A DNA stretch of 64,000 nt from a virus (IMGVR_UViG_3300036715_000153:1-64000); one strand, 5' to 3'; shown: positions 15,901 through 48,287, counted from the stretch's first letter. Made by a program: numbers and translations. Notes: a model not told the origin generated them from the sequence alone.

Positions 15901-16881
15901 TCATTCAAAGAAGTCAGTGAGATCATTCTTTTTCTCAGTAGTCCAGCCAATCGCGTCAGTCACTCCTTGCATCGGGCCTAAGAATGCGGATTCGTACATC
16001 TTTCTTCGGTCGATGTATTTATCTATGTTTAGCTCAACTGGGTACGCACCATCTCCCCAACCAAATACATCTGTTCTGTATGGGCTAGGTTTCATATAAC
16101 AAAATTTAATCTTACCGCCACTCTTAATGGGAGCATATTGGGTGAGATTAGCCTTAGCTATAAAGTGATTGTGGGTCAATGCAGCCTTAACGTTTTGTGG
16201 CGTCCCGGGAGCATACAGCGTATCATTAGGAACGGCCCACTTTGCTAAGTCGTTCACACCTCTCGGAAATGATATAGTCTCTACGGGTAACGTGTTAAAT
16301 AATAATTCTGTTTTGTCTATTAATTTCCACAGCGATTCTTGATCTCTCTTAATAACTAACTCGAATGCCTCTGTTAATGTATCTCTACAGAACTTGGGTG
16401 TCGACGATCTGTTTGTTTCTAGTCCAGTAATAGATAACTTCGGCGTAGCATAACGAATTCCTTCGTTGTCGTGTACTAAGCAGAAGTACCTCTTTTTCTT
16501 GCCCGTGAAGCAGATCGTCGATATTACCTTCTCGCGCTTAAACGATAGTCGGTTCTCTGCGGTATTACACCTAGCCCAAATATCTTTACAAAACCCATCC
16601 AATACGTCTGCCAGCTTAGTGTCTGCAAACTGACATAAAAAGTTAATAGGATCTTTGGGTTTGAACTTCTTAACAAAACAATCTAGATTAAGGAAACATG
16701 AGTCTGTATCTGCAGCCAACGTATAGTCGTCTTCTGGGAATCCTAACTTATGAAAGTAATCATTTATCTTAGATTGTAAGGATAAGTTAGATACTTGACC
16801 AGACAGCGTAATCGCCTCAGCGTTGACTATATCATATAAAGCAAAGTACTGGCTGCCTATAGCTCCGTAGAGCGAATTTGC
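15901..16881 (-). CDS. 43B: DNA polymerase B subunit gp43B, exon 2 (palm/thumb)
   Basis: ANSLYGAIG (motif B), AEAITLSGQ, ADTDS (motif C), KKKRY, GLETNRSSTP. Confidence 0.93.
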   Translation of the reverse strand, partial: ANSLYGAIGSQYFALYDIVNAEAITLSGQVSNLSLQSKINDYFHKLGFPEDDYTLAADTDSCFLNLDCFVKKFKPKDPINFLCQFADTKLADVLDGFCKDIWARCNTAENRLSFKREKVISTICFTGKKKRYFCLVHDNEGIRYATPKLSITGLETNRSSTPKFCRDTLTEAFELVIKRDQESLWKLIDKTELLFNTLPVETISFPRGVNDLAKWAVPNDTLYAPGTPQNVKAALTHNHFIAKANLTQYAPIKSGGKIKFCYMKPSPYRTDVFGWGDGAYPVELNIDKYIDRRKMYESAFLGPMQGVTDAIGWTTEKKNDLTDFFE

Positions 16882-17126
16882 CATTTGATGTTCAGAGGAA
16901 TTCGTTATTTTCCTCCCGCGTTTGCTGCTGTATATTCCTATACAGATCGGACTATATCTTCATCCTATTAATAGGAGTTCTGCATTTCGAGGCACTTGCC
17001 CCTACGCCTTTCGGCTAGTCTCTACACCTTCCCATATCAGGGCTTGGCTCGGTATTGTCCGTTCTGGAGTTCCACCGAATTAACAGAATTTTCATTAGAA
17101 ATTACTCTCTAATGCGCCACAATTTT
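16882..17126 (-). ncRNA. ORF-less group I intron (245 nt) in gp43B
   Basis: Minus strand: P AAUUCGGUGGAA, Q AAUACCGAGCC, R GUAGAGACUA, S AAGAUAUAGUCC; 5' exon ends in U, intron ends in G; guide UUGU-GGCG pairs both exons. Confidence 0.9.
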
Positions 17127-17237
17127 AACGGTTTTTAATCCCAGATCTTTGACAGCCAATCTTGAAATTGTCTTAGACAGACTTTCCTTTTTCCTCAAAA
17201 GCTCGTCTAATGGTATCGCTGTTAAATCTTCCAACAT
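17127..17237 (-). CDS. 43B: DNA polymerase gp43B exon 1 (37 codons, not in track)
   Basis: AAGGAG SD then MLEDLTAIPLDELLRKKESLSKTISRLAVKDLGLKTV; splicing restores KTVANSLYG. Confidence 0.85.
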
Positions 17238-18393
17238 CTTCTCTCCTTATAATTGTTTTACCATTTGAATCACTAACATCATAATCGCACCACATCTTTA
17301 TTATAACACCAAATTGAGGATATGTACACCCGTCAAAATCAATTAAAAATTTCATACGTTCTTCATTGGTGTTGAAGTGAGCTTTAAACTTATTATTAAT
17401 TGATTTGGTCGATATCTCTGGGCCAAACACACAAACCTTGTTAAATGTTGATATTGAATCAAACAAATAGCAATCGAATAAAACGTAATAACTATTTGAT
17501 GCCCCAAGTATATAATGAGATGAATTGCGGTGTTCTTCCCTTGTTATAATCCCACGTTCGCCGGTTAACAAGTTCAGCGCAGTCACGTTATTTGGATTGT
17601 TCATTGATAATAAACCGGACTCTGAACCATACAGTCTACCAGGAACAAATCCTGATGGTATAATATCAACAATTGGATCGATTTTGATTTGGATTTCTTT
17701 GTTATTGTACCACCTTAAACGCGATTGAGCGACCGACAGAGCTTGTTTATATTCGTCAGAATGCCCTAGGCTATACCCTGGTGGTATGTTTTTATCGTCT
17801 TTTTCTAAATATAAATTGGGTAGTCCTGGTGATGAGTAAAGGATTTTACCACTAATACCATTATTCAACTTCATTAGTTCCTTTGTTTCGTCAGATCTCG
17901 AAGAACCTGTGTTTATGGGTATATAATCACCAGACGTGTACCTTATGTCATCGACACTTATATATAACCTATCTGTTTCGTCATCTTTGTTTTTTACACC
18001 GAGCATACCAGACGACCGTAAACTTGAATTGCGCTTCTGTTCATCTGATTGTCGTCTACCTTTATTAGATTTACTAATCTGTTCAGATATATAATGTCTA
18101 GCAAGTTCAAACAAAACAGACGTTTTTTTGTCTCCCGGTATAACACGTCGCATTTGGTTAAATGCAAACCACATTTTATCACCATATATCTTTGCTAACA
18201 TCCAGTGACAAATATAGTGTTCTCTACAAGTTAGCACCTTTATGTTGTTTGGATCAAACTCTAAAGACGGGTCAATTGACCTTGGTATAATATGATGTCG
18301 CTCTAATCCGGATTTTGGTGTATATATTCTATTTGGTATTGAATCTAAAAATTTATAATACCTGGTGTTATAATGATTACTTTTTATCTGCAT
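17173..18393 (-). CDS. free-standing HNH homing endonuclease (Mob-like)
   Basis: ERHHIIPRS...NIKVLTCREHYICHWML; NUMOD3-like segments; WYNN...GFVPGR. Confidence 0.85.
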   Translation of the reverse strand: MQIKSNHYNTRYYKFLDSIPNRIYTPKSGLERHHIIPRSIDPSLEFDPNNIKVLTCREHYICHWMLAKIYGDKMWFAFNQMRRVIPGDKKTSVLFELARHYISEQISKSNKGRRQSDEQKRNSSLRSSGMLGVKNKDDETDRLYISVDDIRYTSGDYIPINTGSSRSDETKELMKLNNGISGKILYSSPGLPNLYLEKDDKNIPPGYSLGHSDEYKQALSVAQSRLRWYNNKEIQIKIDPIVDIIPSGFVPGRLYGSESGLLSMNNPNNVTALNLLTGERGIITREEHRNSSHYILGASNSYYVLFDCYLFDSISTFNKVCVFGPEISTKSINNKFKAHFNTNEERMKFLIDFDGCTYPQFGVIIKMWCDYDVSDSNGKTIIRREDVGRFNSDTIRRAFEEKGKSV

Positions 18394-18442
18394 GGTATGG
18401 AGCCCTCTATTATTAAATGCACCATACTATTTAGTTAATTTG

Positions 18443-19987
18443 CTATTCTGTCAATAATCTCCGTCTTATTTCGGCATCAATAGACTCGTATTGTTTCTTT
18501 AGTGCCTTCATTTCGGTCTTCGCTTTAGATCTGTTATCCAGCACCTGTTTAATGAGCGTGGGAATAATACCAATCTTGTTTTTATAATACAGTTGACCGT
18601 TTGCTGCTATCGTCATGTCGTATTTCTTAAGCACATCAGTCATCTCACTAACGTCTTCCCACGCATTTAGAATACTGGTGAGATTCTTTCTATAGTATGG
18701 CGTTAACTCTTCTGGTACATCGTGCATACCAACCATAGTCTCGGGAGAGATGTTGCACGTAATAATCATCGAGGGATACAGTGAAGTTGCGTCGATGGTT
18801 ACAACGTTATCAAACAAACCAGCAGGTGGCTCTTTAACATACGCACCCTCATACGCAACTTCCTTAGCATTGTGTCTTTCTGGTGGGAGGATTATTCCAT
18901 CCTTGATAAGAGAGTTATACACCAAACAAGTCCATAGTTTAACAGGAGAAAATACGTTCTGATAATTTGTCTTTGCGTTATATGCTAGTTCAACCTGTAA
19001 CTGAATCATCTTTAACTTTGCATCCATGCGCACAACGAGGTCCACGTCAATTATGTTGTAATCATTGTGAAGCTGAGGATGTTGTAACCACAAGTCGTCG
19101 ATAGATCCTTCGAACTCTACCTTTGTTTCGCCTGCTCCTAATACTAACTCAGAGATATATCCCAAACGATACGACTCTTCATTACCCGGTGAATATTTCT
19201 TATACAACTCTTGATAGTCTAAATGACTAATGCCTGCGATGTCGTATTCGGTTGTCTTGGACATGTGGTCGCCAGACTCTTTTTCCCGTATAATTCCAAA
19301 CGGTGACAACTGCAATACTGTCTTATCACCCAGAACTCTTTTAATTCTGTTATGGATGTATGGTATATCGAATAACTTAGAATACCACCCAGAGATGATA
19401 TCGGGGTAGTCTGATTTCCAGAAAGTGATAAGTCTGGTCAACAGATCGGTCTCGTCTACGCATCTAACATATACGATATCATCTGCTATAACCTTAATGC
19501 GTTCCACTGTCGTTTTGCTTGTGCTGTATTCAGCAGTAGACCACGTACGAAACTTCTTATCGATCGTAGAGTAAATAGTTATTGCTGTTATCTCTTGAAG
19601 TGCTGTCATTGGGTCGGGGAACCCGGCGTCAGACCTAACCTCAATATCCAAGAAGAATGTATTAATAAGATTCGAATCATACTCGATATCGTCGGGGTAT
19701 GTATCTCTAGCCCACTGCATTTCCCAGTTACGAGTTCCGTGGATGATCATGCCACTCACACCATCATATCTCTTAATGGCGTCTCTGGCGTCTTGGGTTG
19801 TATCGTATACTGTGGGCCTTAGGTTTATATTGCCAGTAAGAGCCTTAAATCCGGTCTCGTCTCTAGTCGGGAAATATAGCGTAGGTGTAAGGTTACATTC
19901 TACTAGATGTTTACGAACACCATTCTCAATGTATCTGTGTAAGATATTGCCACGGTGCTCTTTAATGTACGTAGGAAACTTAGCCAA
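18443..19987 (-). CDS. 43A: DNA polymerase B subunit gp43A (exonuclease + motif A)
   Basis: LDIEV, GWY..FDIPY, YNIIDV, YEGAYVKEP, DATSLYPS..ITCNISPET; ends at fingers helix with TAG; TTG start. Confidence 0.93.
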   Translation of the reverse strand: MAKFPTYIKEHRGNILHRYIENGVRKHLVECNLTPTLYFPTRDETGFKALTGNINLRPTVYDTTQDARDAIKRYDGVSGMIIHGTRNWEMQWARDTYPDDIEYDSNLINTFFLDIEVRSDAGFPDPMTALQEITAITIYSTIDKKFRTWSTAEYSTSKTTVERIKVIADDIVYVRCVDETDLLTRLITFWKSDYPDIISGWYSKLFDIPYIHNRIKRVLGDKTVLQLSPFGIIREKESGDHMSKTTEYDIAGISHLDYQELYKKYSPGNEESYRLGYISELVLGAGETKVEFEGSIDDLWLQHPQLHNDYNIIDVDLVVRMDAKLKMIQLQVELAYNAKTNYQNVFSPVKLWTCLVYNSLIKDGIILPPERHNAKEVAYEGAYVKEPPAGLFDNVVTIDATSLYPSMIITCNISPETMVGMHDVPEELTPYYRKNLTSILNAWEDVSEMTDVLKKYDMTIAANGQLYYKNKIGIIPTLIKQVLDNRSKAKTEMKALKKQYESIDAEIRRRLLTE

Positions 19988-34916: not shown

Positions 34917-34992
34917 TGGACCCGAAGACAGGACTCGAACCTGCATAATGCCTGAGTAGAATTCAGGTGCCTTTCCATTAGGCTACCTCGGG
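34917..34992 (-). tRNA. tRNA-Arg(UCU)
   Basis: CCCGAGG/CTTCGGG acceptor, CCTGA-ATTCTAC-TCAGG, GTTCGAGT T-loop, CCA encoded. Confidence 0.8.
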
Positions 34993-35001
34993 GTGTTGTA
35001 G

Positions 35002-35090
35002 TGGTAGTCCAGACAGGATTCGAACCTGCAACGATCTTTCGATAATGAATTATGAGTTCACTGCCTCCGAACCAATAGGGCTTCTGGACT
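35002..35090 (-). tRNA. tRNA with CAU anticodon (Ile2/Met?) and long variable arm
   Basis: AGTCCAG/CTGGACT, GTGAA-CTCATAA-TTCAT, ATC-GAAA-GAT variable arm, GTTCGAATC, ACCA. Confidence 0.8.
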
Positions 35091-36504: not shown

Positions 36505-36515
36505 ATTAAAGTCGT

Positions 36516-36539
36516 AAAAAATCCCCATTTCTGGGGATT
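36516..36539 (-). terminator. intrinsic terminator after tmRNA
   Basis: AATCCCCA-GAAA-TGGGGATT-TTTT. Confidence 0.85.
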
Positions 36540-36820
36540 AGTGATTAGATTGGGTAATAAGGTTCTAATCGACCCCAAGCAGTTATTACGCTGCTAGTGC
36601 GTATGCGCCCATTGAGTCATTTGCGTTTAACAAATTGCTTGATTTACTGTCATCGCCTACAGTGTTGCATTCTTCGTTATCTCACGTCAGTCGATTCCAA
36701 TTCATCCCCATTATTAAGTATACTCGAAATCGCAACTCCCTGAGCCGTTTGCGTCTGGAATATACTTAATGGTGGAGATGGAGGCATCGAAGCCTCGTCC
36801 TGCATGCCTTCACTAAAAAT
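36540..36820 (-). ncRNA. ssrA: circularly permuted (two-piece) tmRNA
   Basis: 3' part GGACGAGGCTTCGATGCCTC-CATCTCC-ACCA (ends 36770) precedes 5' part GGGGATG-AATTGGAATCGAC (starts 36709); G3.U70; tag ANDSMGAYALAA** at 36624-36583. Upstream boundary uncertain. Confidence 0.92.
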
Positions 36821-37040
36821 GACGAGTCAAAGTCACAAGGACGAATGACTCGTGGGTACAACAATTCTGTCTACCATTAAGTCCTTACGAACCGACCGAG
36901 AAACCTCGATCCAGTATTGCTACAGGTCGTAGACACCTTTGATACCCGAGACTTCGGTCTCTGTTGCTTTCTTAATTTAGTTGAATCACTGTTGAATCTT
37001 GTTCGTTACCCCAGCGGATGCGAGTTGTTTCCATATCAAT

Positions 37041-38475: not shown

Positions 38476-38550
38476 TGGTCTCTCCTGTCAGAATCGGACT
38501 GACGATTTCTGCGTCCCAAACACAGCGACTTACCACTAGCCTAAAGAGAG
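38476..38550 (-). tRNA. tRNA-Pro(UGG)
   Basis: CTCTCTT/AGGAGAG, CTGTG-TTTGGGA-CGCAG, GTCAG/CTGAC, ACCA. Confidence 0.85.
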
Positions 38551-38560
38551 ATAAAACTTA

Positions 38561-38634
38561 AATCAACTATCTGGAATCGAACCAGTCTCGCACTAATAAG
38601 TTAGCCGCTCTGCCGATGAGCTATTAGTTGATTT
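38561..38634 (-). ncRNA. tRNA-like RNA with 4-nt anticodon loop, no CCA
   Basis: TAGCTC-ATCGGCA-GAGC D arm, GCTAA-CTTA-TTAGT, CTGG-TTCGATT-CCAG, AAATCAACTA/TAGTTGATTT. Confidence 0.55.
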
Positions 38635-38641
38635 ATAAAAA

Positions 38642-38717
38642 TGGCTCCCCAGCGTGGGCTCGAACCACGGACCTAACGATTAACAGTCGTTTGCTCTACC
38701 TACTGAGCTACTGAGGA
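38642..38717 (-). tRNA. tRNA-Asn(GUU)
   Basis: TCCTCAG/CTGGGGA, AACGA-CTGTTAA-TCGTT, GTTCGAG, GCCA. Confidence 0.93.
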
Positions 38718-38828
38718 ATTGTTTAATTTGTATGGCAGACACACGAACACTGTGTCCCTTAAACGCTATTATGATACAAAACTTGGTTTGACCTGTTGGC
38801 GTATCTGCTAACCAAAAGTCGAAATATC

Positions 38829-38915
38829 TGGTGCGAGAGACGGGGGTCGAACCCGTATGTCTTTACGGACGAGAGATTTTAAGTCTCTTGAGTATACCAA
38901 TTTCTCCACTCTCGC
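38829..38915 (-). tRNA. tRNA-Leu(UAA)
   Basis: GCGAGAG/CTCTCGC, AGAGA-CTTAAAA-TCTCT, variable arm, GTTCGAC, ACCA. Confidence 0.92.
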
Positions 38916-45859: not shown

Positions 45860-46954
45860 TTATTTAGTTTTGAGTATAGTCCTCGCCTTAGCTCGATATT
45901 CCGACATCGTTATGTTTGGGTACATTTCACGTGCAATGAGATATCTCTTAATAGTCGATCCGTCGATATTGAGAATTTTCTTTGCATCTGAGATAGAGCT
46001 GTATGATACTCCGTCGATAGTGACGGACTTACCTTTTAGTTTTCTTGCTGCGAGGCTGTTAATATCACATTGTTTTTTGTATTGCGTTAACCATTCATCG
46101 AACGAAGTTACTATTCCATCCTCTACATATTTCTTTATCAGTCGGTTGTCTGTATTATTTGCTATTGCTGCTTTGGATATCGACGAATATACTATGCAAT
46201 CGACCACAACAGATTTACTAGATGATTTAAGTCTGCTTTGATTATTATTCTCTTTTTCTAAATCAAGCCATTCCTTAAATGATTTATCACCTTGATAATT
46301 ACTGTATCGTTTGATGATTTTGTAAATCATACTCTTTTTAATGTTGTGTGTTTGAGCTACATCTAATATGGACGGGTATACTACACCGTCAATTTCAATA
46401 ATAGTTGCGTGTAGGGTCTTCCTGACTTCCTTGCTGCGTTTACTCAAGTCATATTCAAATTCGTGTACCGCTGTATCGCTTGAATATTCTGAATTATACT
46501 TTCTTAAATTTTGATACGATATCCCGGTTGCTTTAGTTGCATCCCTCATACATCCATATTCCAACCCATCAACTATAATTGGAACTGCAGACGGATTATC
46601 TCCACCAGACAGCGAATCTCTTTTAGCAATGCTAGCGTATTCGTATATGTGGGCAAACTCGTCTAAGTTAGACTCGTCGACTTCTTTAGTGTTACACATC
46701 CAAAACAACGCGTGAGCCATCTTAGATATTTCGTCTTTACTACCACATTCACGGAGCGCATCTAACAGAAGGTAATGGGCTTTGAGGTGATTGTACGGTG
46801 ACAGATATACTGTTTGGTCATTATCACCAAATATTGCCCGAGGATATACGTGATGCGACTCGTCATACTTATCTGGTACAACTTTATTATCCGAGCAAAA
46901 TTCTAAATATTTGGATAATTTGGCAGACGTGAAATTAAAGTTTAGTGTATTCAT
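45860..46954 (-). CDS. HNH homing endonuclease with four NUMOD1-like HTH repeats
   Basis: ESHHVYPR..FG...LSPYNHLKAHYLL; repeats (I/V).IDG..Y.SI..A. Confidence 0.8.
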   Translation of the reverse strand: MNTLNFNFTSAKLSKYLEFCSDNKVVPDKYDESHHVYPRAIFGDNDQTVYLSPYNHLKAHYLLLDALRECGSKDEISKMAHALFWMCNTKEVDESNLDEFAHIYEYASIAKRDSLSGGDNPSAVPIIVDGLEYGCMRDATKATGISYQNLRKYNSEYSSDTAVHEFEYDLSKRSKEVRKTLHATIIEIDGVVYPSILDVAQTHNIKKSMIYKIIKRYSNYQGDKSFKEWLDLEKENNNQSRLKSSSKSVVVDCIVYSSISKAAIANNTDNRLIKKYVEDGIVTSFDEWLTQYKKQCDINSLAARKLKGKSVTIDGVSYSSISDAKKILNIDGSTIKRYLIAREMYPNITMSEYRAKARTILKTK

Positions 46955-47141
46955 ATTATCACATACTAACATTATTCGCATAGAATGTCAAATATTTAAG
47001 TCGTAGAAAAAGCCCAACTTAATGAGCTTTTCTTATTACCAGCGGAGATTCACGACAGATTGAACTAAATAGAATGGTAGCCGCGATATTACTAGTATCC
47101 GCTACCTCTAGTCACTCTAATAACAATTGAAAGGCAATCGT

Positions 47142-48287
47142 ATGACCAGCAATCTAATTTATACAACGTTAAAACTCAAATCCAAGAACGAACATTATCT
47201 AATTAGGTATTGTAACTTCATTCGATCACTAAGTACACAACTTTCTTCCGGAGGCACAGAGGCTCACCATATTTGTCCGGTTGGCGAATATCCAGAATAT
47301 TCTGATTTCGAATTACACCCATGGAACTGTGTACACCTAACAAAACACCAGCACTTTATCGCGCACTGGATGCTATGGAAAATCTTAGGATTATCTCAGA
47401 CCCGCGCGTTCAATATGATGAGTACAACCCGTGATGGAATTAGGATTAAATCTGGTCGGGTATTTGCACAGTTGAAGGACGATTATCACGCTGAGCAGAT
47501 CAGGTTGGCTGAGTTAGGGTTACATGCAAATCAGACACAAGAGTTCAGAGATCAACAACGGGCTGTGCAGAACGCCATAGTCGCCGCAGGTGAGCATCAC
47601 TGGTTAACTGAAGAACATAGTATATTTAAGAGTGAAATGGAAAAGAAGAGATATGAAGATGGTACTCATCCGTGGTGTAGTAAAGAGTTCCAGGAGGAGA
47701 ATGGCGCGCGTGCTTCGGCTAGGCAGAAGGCATTAGTTGATGCAGGTGTGCATATTTGGCAGAGTGAAGAGTGCAAGGCAGAAACATCGAGGAGGCTCTT
47801 AGAACTATCTGCCAAAGGAGAACACCCCTTCCAAGATGCGGAGTTCAAAGCTCGTAATTCTGCTAGACAAAAAGAATTATCGGCCAAGGGAGAACATCAT
47901 ACACAACAGAAAGAGTGCATCGAATTACACAAGGAAGGGTTATTGTGTAAAAGAAACAGGAATAATGTTGCTATATTGAAGGGTCACGCGGAAAGACTTC
48001 GAATGGTCTTAGGTTCGGGCTATGATTTAAAATCGGATGAATGGATAAACGAAAAGATTAAAGAATTAGAGTTAATTGAATATATAGAACCACCAAAGGC
48101 ATATCAGTGCAACTCAGACGAATCTCTAAAGGCATCTGGATTGAGAATAAAGAATAAGTCGAATAGGGAATGTGTTGTAGAGTTAAGACTTCTTGCTAAG
48201 GACAAAAATGTTACCCTATCTAGGGGATATAGCATGAAACCAGATGAATGGATATTAGAAAAGATTAAGGAAATACAAAAGTTGTAG
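47142..48287 (+). CDS. HNH homing endonuclease with repeated C-terminal modules
   Basis: EAHHICP...WNCVHLT..QHFIAHWMLWK; upstream CTAAATA promoter. Confidence 0.8.
   Translation: MTSNLIYTTLKLKSKNEHYLIRYCNFIRSLSTQLSSGGTEAHHICPVGEYPEYSDFELHPWNCVHLTKHQHFIAHWMLWKILGLSQTRAFNMMSTTRDGIRIKSGRVFAQLKDDYHAEQIRLAELGLHANQTQEFRDQQRAVQNAIVAAGEHHWLTEEHSIFKSEMEKKRYEDGTHPWCSKEFQEENGARASARQKALVDAGVHIWQSEECKAETSRRLLELSAKGEHPFQDAEFKARNSARQKELSAKGEHHTQQKECIELHKEGLLCKRNRNNVAILKGHAERLRMVLGSGYDLKSDEWINEKIKELELIEYIEPPKAYQCNSDESLKASGLRIKNKSNRECVVELRLLAKDKNVTLSRGYSMKPDEWILEKIKEIQKL

Follow-up and report, generated by a model that had tools for sequence, protein, structure and literature searches.

How is a complete replicative DNA polymerase made from a gene that is broken in two, carries a second gene in the break and is interrupted once more in polymerase motif B? 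The question is raised by gene 43 in the virus record IMGVR_UViG_3300036715_000153, of which the first 64,000 nucleotides (nt) were analysed and are called the window here; the entire IMG/VR record is 140,394 bp long and has direct terminal repeats. On the minus strand of the window, gene 43 is found as two cistrons, gp43A and gp43B. A free-standing HNH homing-endonuclease gene (HEG) lies between them, adjacent to a group I intron in gp43B that has no open reading frame (ORF) of its own, which is the layout of a collaborative pair. On balance, the locus probably encodes a replicative polymerase of family B that has two subunits, and a mobile element of two parts, HNH gene plus intron, has probably invaded it. 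As far as the sequence can tell, collaborative homing would be the most likely mechanism.

The two polymerase cistrons

gp43A displays the Pfam domains DNA_pol_B_exo1 (3e-18) and DNA_pol_B (6.6e-19) and aligns with RB69 gp43 over residues 7–500 (E-value = 2e-73). The C-terminus reads EIRRRLLTE* and the stop lies, by extrapolation, near RB69 residue 510. This places the end of gp43A at the tip of the fingers domain, which we take to span about residues 469–572 in RB69. The C-terminus is found at the identical alignment position in other split relatives, and the break point is also that of Aeromonas phage 25 and Acinetobacter phage Lazarus. Other IMG/VR relatives split at the identical point have gp43A sequences ending in ...LLNE* or ...LLHE* and gp43B proteins of 359–363 amino acids (aa). 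The gap in these split relatives contains only about 8 nt (L010, L025), a 248-aa ORF (L014, L015, L017 and L031; about 3680–4420 in L014), or two ORFs of 90 and 264 aa (L042, 2836–3899). Eight split loci without an HNH gene of the type found in the window were scanned with Rfam and none showed a group I intron.

gp43B appears to consist of two exons. The larger, exon 2, aligns with RB69 gp43 positions 564–902 (E-value = 1e-35), with exon 2 residue N2 at RB69 N564, and is also matched by Pfam DNA_pol_B. The alignment puts the intron two codons past the motif-B lysine K560, at the point that corresponds to the L562/I563 boundary of RB69. The segment that precedes the intron starts at ATG 17237, the first start codon after an in-frame TAA (17249–17247) four codons upstream. 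Its first 65 nt are shared with the 3′ end of the HNH ORF, and its codons end in G-L-K-T-V at 17127; the open frame then continues for five codons into the intron, with a stop at 17111–17109. Excision of 17126–16882 fuses GTT to GCA and gives K-T-V-A-N-S-L-Y-G, with an expected ligated-exon junction of ...AAAACCGTT|GCAAATTCG... and a gp43B of 363 aa, compared with 359–363 aa in the intron-less split relatives. Exon 1 aligns without gaps to the N-termini of these 359–363-aa proteins and to unsplit polymerases.

When gp43A and spliced gp43B are concatenated (877 aa), most unsplit IMG/VR relatives give a single match over residues 1–876. There is no gap at the exon joint versus unsplit polymerases, and alignment gaps are confined to the region of the fingers tip, at the tail of gp43A and the beginning of exon 1, a region of variable length among relatives. 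The two cistrons are thus predicted to cover together a complete family B polymerase with a break in the fingers domain. Their products presumably associate non-covalently, as has been reported for the split enzymes of Aeromonas phages. The phage itself is an orphan. A megablast search of the locus against 50,697 phage records gave no match, and gp43B reaches at best 42% identity in named phages and 44% both in IMG/VR and in a set of 5.8 billion proteins, so no intron-less near relative is available for direct confirmation of the junction.

Two other structures can be weighed at this point. The public gene call for gp43B (P0001, 327 aa, 16884–15901) is automatic and starts MANSLYG, with the last three intron bases read as ATG. 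If this call were correct, the intron would be retained, gp43B would start at Met 16884 and the 42-codon ORF at 17237 would be spurious. However, such a protein would lack the motif-B lysine and the whole second fingers helix, no Shine-Dalgarno (SD)-like sequence is seen directly upstream of 16884, and the mini-exon is homologous to the polymerase of relatives and is kept with its own start in six other loci. The ATG at 16884 is the terminal AUG of the intron, as in an Acinetobacter phage polA intron described below, and a start there is very improbable. The chance that a split intein joins the two polymerase halves covalently is practically negligible. The polymerase similarity of gp43A extends to the stop codon and that of gp43B begins at about residue 12, which leaves no room for N- and C-intein blocks, and the break shows no Cys/Ser/Thr plus HN signature. 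Furthermore, in relatives whose two halves are separated by a bare 8 nt, gp43A ends and gp43B begins at the same positions; such identically split, intron-less relatives rule out a split intein and mark the mini-exon as real coding sequence.

Much of this anatomy had been proposed in the initial annotation of the window, and the coordinates given there all stand, on the minus strand. The end of gp43A at the fingers tip (EIRRRLLTE*) agrees with the RB69 alignment, and the remark that the annotated MANSLYG start lacks the motif-B lysine agrees with the position of P0001, which begins in the last three intron bases. The hidden exon with an SD sequence, ATG 17237 and 37 codons to GLKTV is borne out by the sequence and by homologous mini-exons, and the GTT/GCA join on removal of 17126–16882, with KTVANSLYG and a 363-aa gp43B, by the alignments. 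The annotation had also called a group I intron that lacks an ORF and suggested a scan with covariance models; the scan and the covariation given in the next section both support the call.

The group I intron and the HNH gene

The Rfam model RF00028 matches positions 17137–16928 over the full model (positions 1–253) with 90.2 bits, compared to a gathering score of 50; the E-value is 7.2e-23 in a 5-kb search and 9.2e-22 in the whole window. This is the only group I intron found in the 140-kb genome. In P1, exon CGUU (17130–17127) pairs with GGCG (17118–17115), with a U17127·G17118 wobble at the splice site. One more hairpin is present beyond the end of the model, followed by ...CAUCAAAUG and the terminal G16882. 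In a hand check, no combination of a P1 U and a terminal G other than U17127/G16882 was found to keep the frame and restore K-x3-N-S-L-Y-G. The P7 strands are GACUA (17020–17016) and UAGUC (16954–16950). P7.1 and P7.2 are situated between the P7 5′ strand and the P3 3′ strand, which we take to indicate subgroup IA or an IA-like intron, with IA1, IA2 and IA3 not distinguished. Apart from the five-codon read-through of exon 1, the sense strand of the 245-nt intron has no ORF, and its 5′ splice site is located 47 nt downstream of the end of the HNH gene. The intron would be expected to self-splice from a polycistronic transcript.

The secondary structure shows covariation among six alignable introns of 56–79% identity, from the window and related loci; the intron of locus L098 was excluded because its contig ends inside the intron. 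The structure consists of 66 pairs, which form P1, P2, P3–P9 and the post-P9 hairpins and include the P7 pseudoknot. Standard pairs occupy 93% of the cells, versus 38–42% when partners are slid by 1–3 columns. Compensatory change is found in 38 of the 66 pairs against a mean of 18.6 in shuffled alignments, none of 500 shuffles reached the observed value, and RNAalifold agrees. P7.1 and P7.2 (helices 9 and 10; alignment columns 146–157 and 161–174) are 100% paired, with six of their eight pairs compensatory. P1 (helix 1) shows one compensatory change among the relatives. P7 is invariant and therefore uninformative with respect to covariation.

A homologous intron is present in Acinetobacter phage vB_Ab_1137_KEN_01 (PP841126). 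Over 143 nt, the 3′ half of the window intron (P7 through the last hairpin to the terminal AUG) shares 76% identity with it (E-value = 3e-20), and the last hairpin displays compensatory changes between the two. The KEN_01 intron differs in its location, as it is found in the family A polA gene and not in polB, and it carries its own 143-aa HNH ORF. The possibility that the HNH gene of the window is an escaped ORF of this polA intron was rejected, as the two HNH ORFs are unrelated (BLASTP E-value = 0.66). In KEN_01 (L090, 2078–2651), polA is annotated as two "DNA polymerase" coding sequences around the HNH ORF. The downstream coding sequence starts two bases past the homologous stretch, apparently at the terminal AUG of the intron, the same artefact as in the window.

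The HNH protein matches phrog_655, annotated as a homing endonuclease (1.5e-31), and also phrog_12434 and the HNH family phrog_144. Nine full-length relatives with 32–42% identity are found in a large protein collection. E31, H33, H34, N50, H59 and H63 are invariant across the ten-member family (motif E-R-H-H-I-I-P ... N50 ... H59 ... H63). A Pfam search that included PF01844 gave no family at E-values up to 10 other than a sub-threshold NUMOD3, and a sequence search of the PDB gave no relevant match to a solved structure; PF01844 is carried by one distant member of the family (P0132). The public record of the protein (P0121, 342 aa) apparently starts at the internal Met65 and would lose H33, H34, N50, H59 and H63. 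Since the alignments with homologues begin at residue 1, the likely product is the protein of 406 aa. A hairpin in the 49-nt spacer before the gene includes the HNH SD sequence (AGAGGG) and abuts the AUG. It is no more stable than hairpins of shuffled sequences (−11.1 kcal/mol, z = −1.19), and a role in translational control, like that of the hairpins that sequester the ribosome binding sites of T4 HEGs, was rejected on this account. Two further phrog_655 HNH genes are found back to back in the window, at 45860–46981 (minus strand, 373 aa) and 47127–48287 (plus strand, 386 aa); the latter is 35% identical to the HNH of the gene 43 locus over the first 120 residues.

Table 1. Features of the gene 43 locus, in order of transcription (coordinates of the window)
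Feature	Coordinates	Strand	Remarks
gp43A: N-terminal, exonuclease and palm (motif A) regions and first fingers helix of family B DNA polymerase	18443..19987	-	514 aa, TTG start
Spacer from gp43A stop to HNH start	18394..18442	-	49 nt, weak hairpin
Free-standing HNH homing-endonuclease gene	17173..18393	-	406 aa, phrog_655
gp43B Shine-Dalgarno sequence AAGGAG	17243..17248	-	5-nt spacer to ATG 17237
gp43B exon 1: second fingers helix up to K-T-V of motif B	17127..17237	-	37 codons
ORF-less group I intron	16882..17126	-	245 nt, RF00028
Internal guide sequence UUGUGGCG	17115..17122	-	from covariance-model alignment
gp43B exon 2: A-N-S-L-Y-G onward, rest of motif B, palm with DTDS (motif C), thumb	15901..16881	-	326 aa plus stop

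Among the genes that neighbour the locus are those for a DnaB-like helicase, a UvsX-like recombinase and a PhoH-like protein, a gene content that would suit a T4-like phage. Scans for sigma-70 promoters and terminators gave hits at chance level only. Elsewhere in the window, Rfam shows a permuted tmRNA (RF04321, 97 bits; RF01850, 114 bits) at 36515–36874 (minus strand) and five tRNA genes at 34920–35090 and 38479–38915 (minus strand).

The module in other phages and its known counterparts

The HNH-plus-intron module is also found in L092, L093, L095, L097, L098 and L099, that is, in all six relatives for which flanking DNA is available. These loci were drawn from ENA, JGI/NCBI and Logan assemblies. 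All six show the same order: gp43A, the HNH gene directly after it, a gp43B mini-exon with its own start and a homologous group I intron. With the window, the HNH family and the intron occur together in seven of seven loci, and the HNH family is always located after gp43A. The start of gp43B overlaps the 3′ end of the HNH gene by 4–83 nt in the four relatives measured, and an SD-like sequence precedes the exon-1 ATG in four of the five relatives read, that of L097 being weak. Homologous mini-exons are found in L092, L093 and L095, and the L093 intron gives 96 bits with Rfam.

Exon boundaries in L092, L093 and L095 are as in the window (K-x-x | x-N-S-x-Y-G). By hand reading, the L099 boundary is apparently 1 nt off that of the window, and in L097 and L098 the intron is situated 12–13 nt further on (N-S-L | Y-G). 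There are thus two classes of intron site, all within a 13-nt stretch of motif-B DNA. No insertion at motif B is found in unsplit loci, which gave a single match across the motif. The 338-aa "MAKKISLNS..." proteins, which are common in public protein sets, were considered as further motif-B interruptions and rejected from the one examined (L085, 3527–6017). There, an upstream polymerase call of 506 aa shares 47 nt with that of 338 aa, so this case is an artefact of frameshift or assembly and not an intron, and such fragments can result from frameshifted or overlapping gene calls. A further insertion in exon 2, next to the DTDS of motif C, is seen in L097 (5825–6375) and L092 (6710–8118). In L097 it is in frame and about 183 aa long, and the Pfam Intein_splicing matches are faint or weak. 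These insertions are probably inteins, which would give these genes three kinds of interruption.

The nearest known arrangement is gene 43 of Aeromonas salmonicida phage 25, where a free-standing endonuclease gene separates 43A from a 43B that contains a group IA2 intron without an ORF, 25.g43B (PMC2993671 and PMC2988022, which both cite Petrov, Ratnayaka and Karam, J Mol Biol 2010). The genome record (NC_008208) annotates 43A, a "homing endonuclease" and a 43B "split by group IA2 intron", and RF00028 matches the phage 25 intron with 64 bits when checked here. The nuclease is named segD-like endonuclease seg43(25) (PMC2988022); it has 267 aa and its N-terminus reads as a GIY-YIG motif. The intron was predicted to rely on the free-standing HEG for its mobility (PMC2993671), and the proteins made from the split 43A and 43B purify together and are active as a polymerase (PMC2988022). 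The initial annotation had known of no polymerase locus that combines a split, an intron and an endonuclease gene that is free-standing; since phage 25 gene 43 carries all three, that claim of novelty is incorrect.

Phage 25 resembles the window in the order of parts on one strand, in the split at the fingers tip (tblastn query 7–510, resuming at 543) and in a short 43B exon 1 (about 58 codons versus 37). The two differ in several respects. The phage 25 HEG encodes a 267-aa seg-like GIY-YIG protein and does not overlap 43B, whereas the window has a 406-aa HNH protein whose gene overlaps the start of gp43B. By reading, the phage 25 intron lies in the Leu codon after N-S-L-Y-G-A (exon 1 ...K-I-L-I-N-S-L-Y-G-A-L), 22 nt downstream of the window site K-T-V|A-N-S, and it is the longer of the two, with an Rfam match of 329 nt versus 210 nt. 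The gp43 sequences of the two phages are only about 30% identical. Petrov, Ratnayaka and Karam (2010) reportedly showed that the phage 25 endonuclease cuts intron-free 43B alleles and that the intron self-splices.

Split polymerases with fewer of these parts are found as well. Aeromonas phages 44RR and 31 have only intercistronic untranslated sequence at the split (PMC2988022). Like the window, they show a two-cistron polymerase broken in the fingers domain; unlike the window, they contain neither an HEG nor an intron (PMC2988022). In the Lazarusvirus phages of Acinetobacter (vB_AbaM_Lazarus, MN782535), a gene annotated as an HNH "intron-associated homing endonuclease" is situated between gp43A and gp43B. 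These HNH proteins are the nearest named relatives of the window HNH (24–26% identity over 71–76% of the length, E-values down to 5e-14), and the Lazarus split is positioned as in the window (query residues 8–512 and 516–877). However, the Lazarus HNH gene lies on the opposite strand, five small ORFs are also present in the gap and gp43B is uninterrupted. No Rfam group I intron was detected in the Lazarusvirus split gp43 loci.

Collaborative or trans homing is reportedly found with T3 gene 5.3 and the DNA polymerase intron of phage PhiI, described by Bonocora and Shub in 2009, and is said to be found with F-CphI of S-PM2 and the psbA intron. Trans homing is also the mechanism of T4 mobE with the nrdB intron (PMC2790892), and the general scheme has been set out (PMC3984707). 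In these systems, as in the window, a conserved gene holds a group I intron whose ORF is missing or defective, and a free-standing endonuclease lies beside the intron. They share as well the logic proposed here for the window, in which the target of the nuclease would coincide with the insertion site of the intron. They differ in host genes and nuclease families, and their cleavage was measured.

Homing as a pair, homing apart or inheritance

If the module spreads by collaborative homing, the HNH enzyme would cleave gene 43 at or close to motif B in co-infecting relatives whose alleles lack both the HNH gene and the intron. Repair by recombination would then copy the intron along with the HNH gene (collaborative or trans homing), and the donor allele would be protected as the intron interrupts the target in the donor genome. 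Self-splicing of the intron would restore motif B, and gp43A and gp43B would associate non-covalently. Cleavage of intron-less motif-B alleles and protection by the intron had been suggested in the initial annotation and are plausible; the co-occurrence of the HNH family with the intron in seven of seven loci strengthens this idea.

Several observations weigh against it. Among the splice elements listed in the initial annotation, P1, the U at the 5′ splice site and the terminal G stand, but P10 fares less well: the guide UUGU can pair with exon-2 GCAA in the window, yet this pairing is unconserved in the homologous introns (by hand pairing) and is therefore weak evidence. In a quick maximum-likelihood tree of gp43A, the HNH-plus-intron loci occupy long branches of a basal grade. 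They are neighbours of Aeromonas phage 25 and of Acinetobacter Lazarus and do not belong to the well-supported clade that 69 cyanophage-like sequences form. A single ancient origin of the module is compatible with this tree, so that the seven-of-seven co-occurrence may reflect shared descent and not functional coupling. The gp43A proteins that flank the module are 30–49% identical and the HNH proteins 27–42%, an about equal divergence. Finally, the search gave no close relative that lacks either the intron or the HNH gene, as the best gp43B match among the 5.8 billion proteins is 44% identical, and hence there is no presence/absence polymorphism to show recent mobility.

The equal divergence of HNH and gp43A, and the grouping of the HNH-plus-intron loci in one basal grade with a compatible single origin, would also suit a relic, an old module that has been passed on vertically and has ceased to home. 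The HNH protein would then be kept for some other role (e.g. excluding competing phages, or as an accessory to the split polymerase) and the intron would be tolerated; the overlap of the HNH ORF with the start of gp43B in five of the six loci measured (4–83 nt) gives the arrangement an integrated look. Such a relic is improbable. The HNH protein has kept both its catalytic residues and its full length, as would suit an active nuclease, and L092 and L093, the closest pair in gp43A (49%), are not the closest pair in HNH (39%), a hint of some exchange. It is also not sharply distinct from homing of an exclusion type. With the same anatomy, the HNH gene and the intron could instead be independent of one another. 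The HNH gene would home to the 43A/43B gap of HNH-less split alleles by intron-less homing, in the manner of the T4 Seg and Mob genes, and the intron would be an old ORF-less passenger that travels with it only on account of its place 111 nt away, within the co-conversion tract. Distant HNH genes (about 25% identity) between gp43A and gp43B of Lazarusvirus phages without a detectable intron speak for such independence, and bare splits and splits with other cargo at the same site offer possible landing sites. Nevertheless, the intron is present in seven of seven loci of the HNH family and always in motif-B DNA, though at two positions, which is easier to understand if the intron must break one sequence. 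Independent homing is unlikely, though it deserves serious attention.

Within collaborative homing, a more specific view can be put forward tentatively. The HNH gene and the ORF-less intron may form a stable, co-evolving two-part element that is specialised on the motif-B DNA of the split gene 43. The element would have persisted through the deep divergence of a sparsely sampled T4-like lineage, rather than fusing quickly into an intron-encoded endonuclease as the collaborative-homing model predicts, and the two intron positions 12–13 nt apart would reflect re-targeting within one recognition site.

As the layout, the logic and the split enzyme have already been described, the conceptual gain is moderate. 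What is new compared to phage 25 is a predicted nuclease of the HNH and not the GIY-YIG type, a different predicted insertion site in motif B, and the overlap of the HNH ORF with the predicted start of gp43B. Also new is the conservation of the predicted module: whereas only one Aeromonas case is known, it is shared here by at least seven uncultured phages that have diverged deeply. In automatic annotation, gp43B is cut short at the terminal AUG of the intron and the catalytic motif-B lysine is lost, which matters for polymerase-based phylogenies of T4-like phages. The locus is a second, independently assembled natural example of the phage 25 arrangement, and with its relatives it provides a comparative set for asking whether collaborative homing is a short transition to intron-encoded endonucleases or a stable state.

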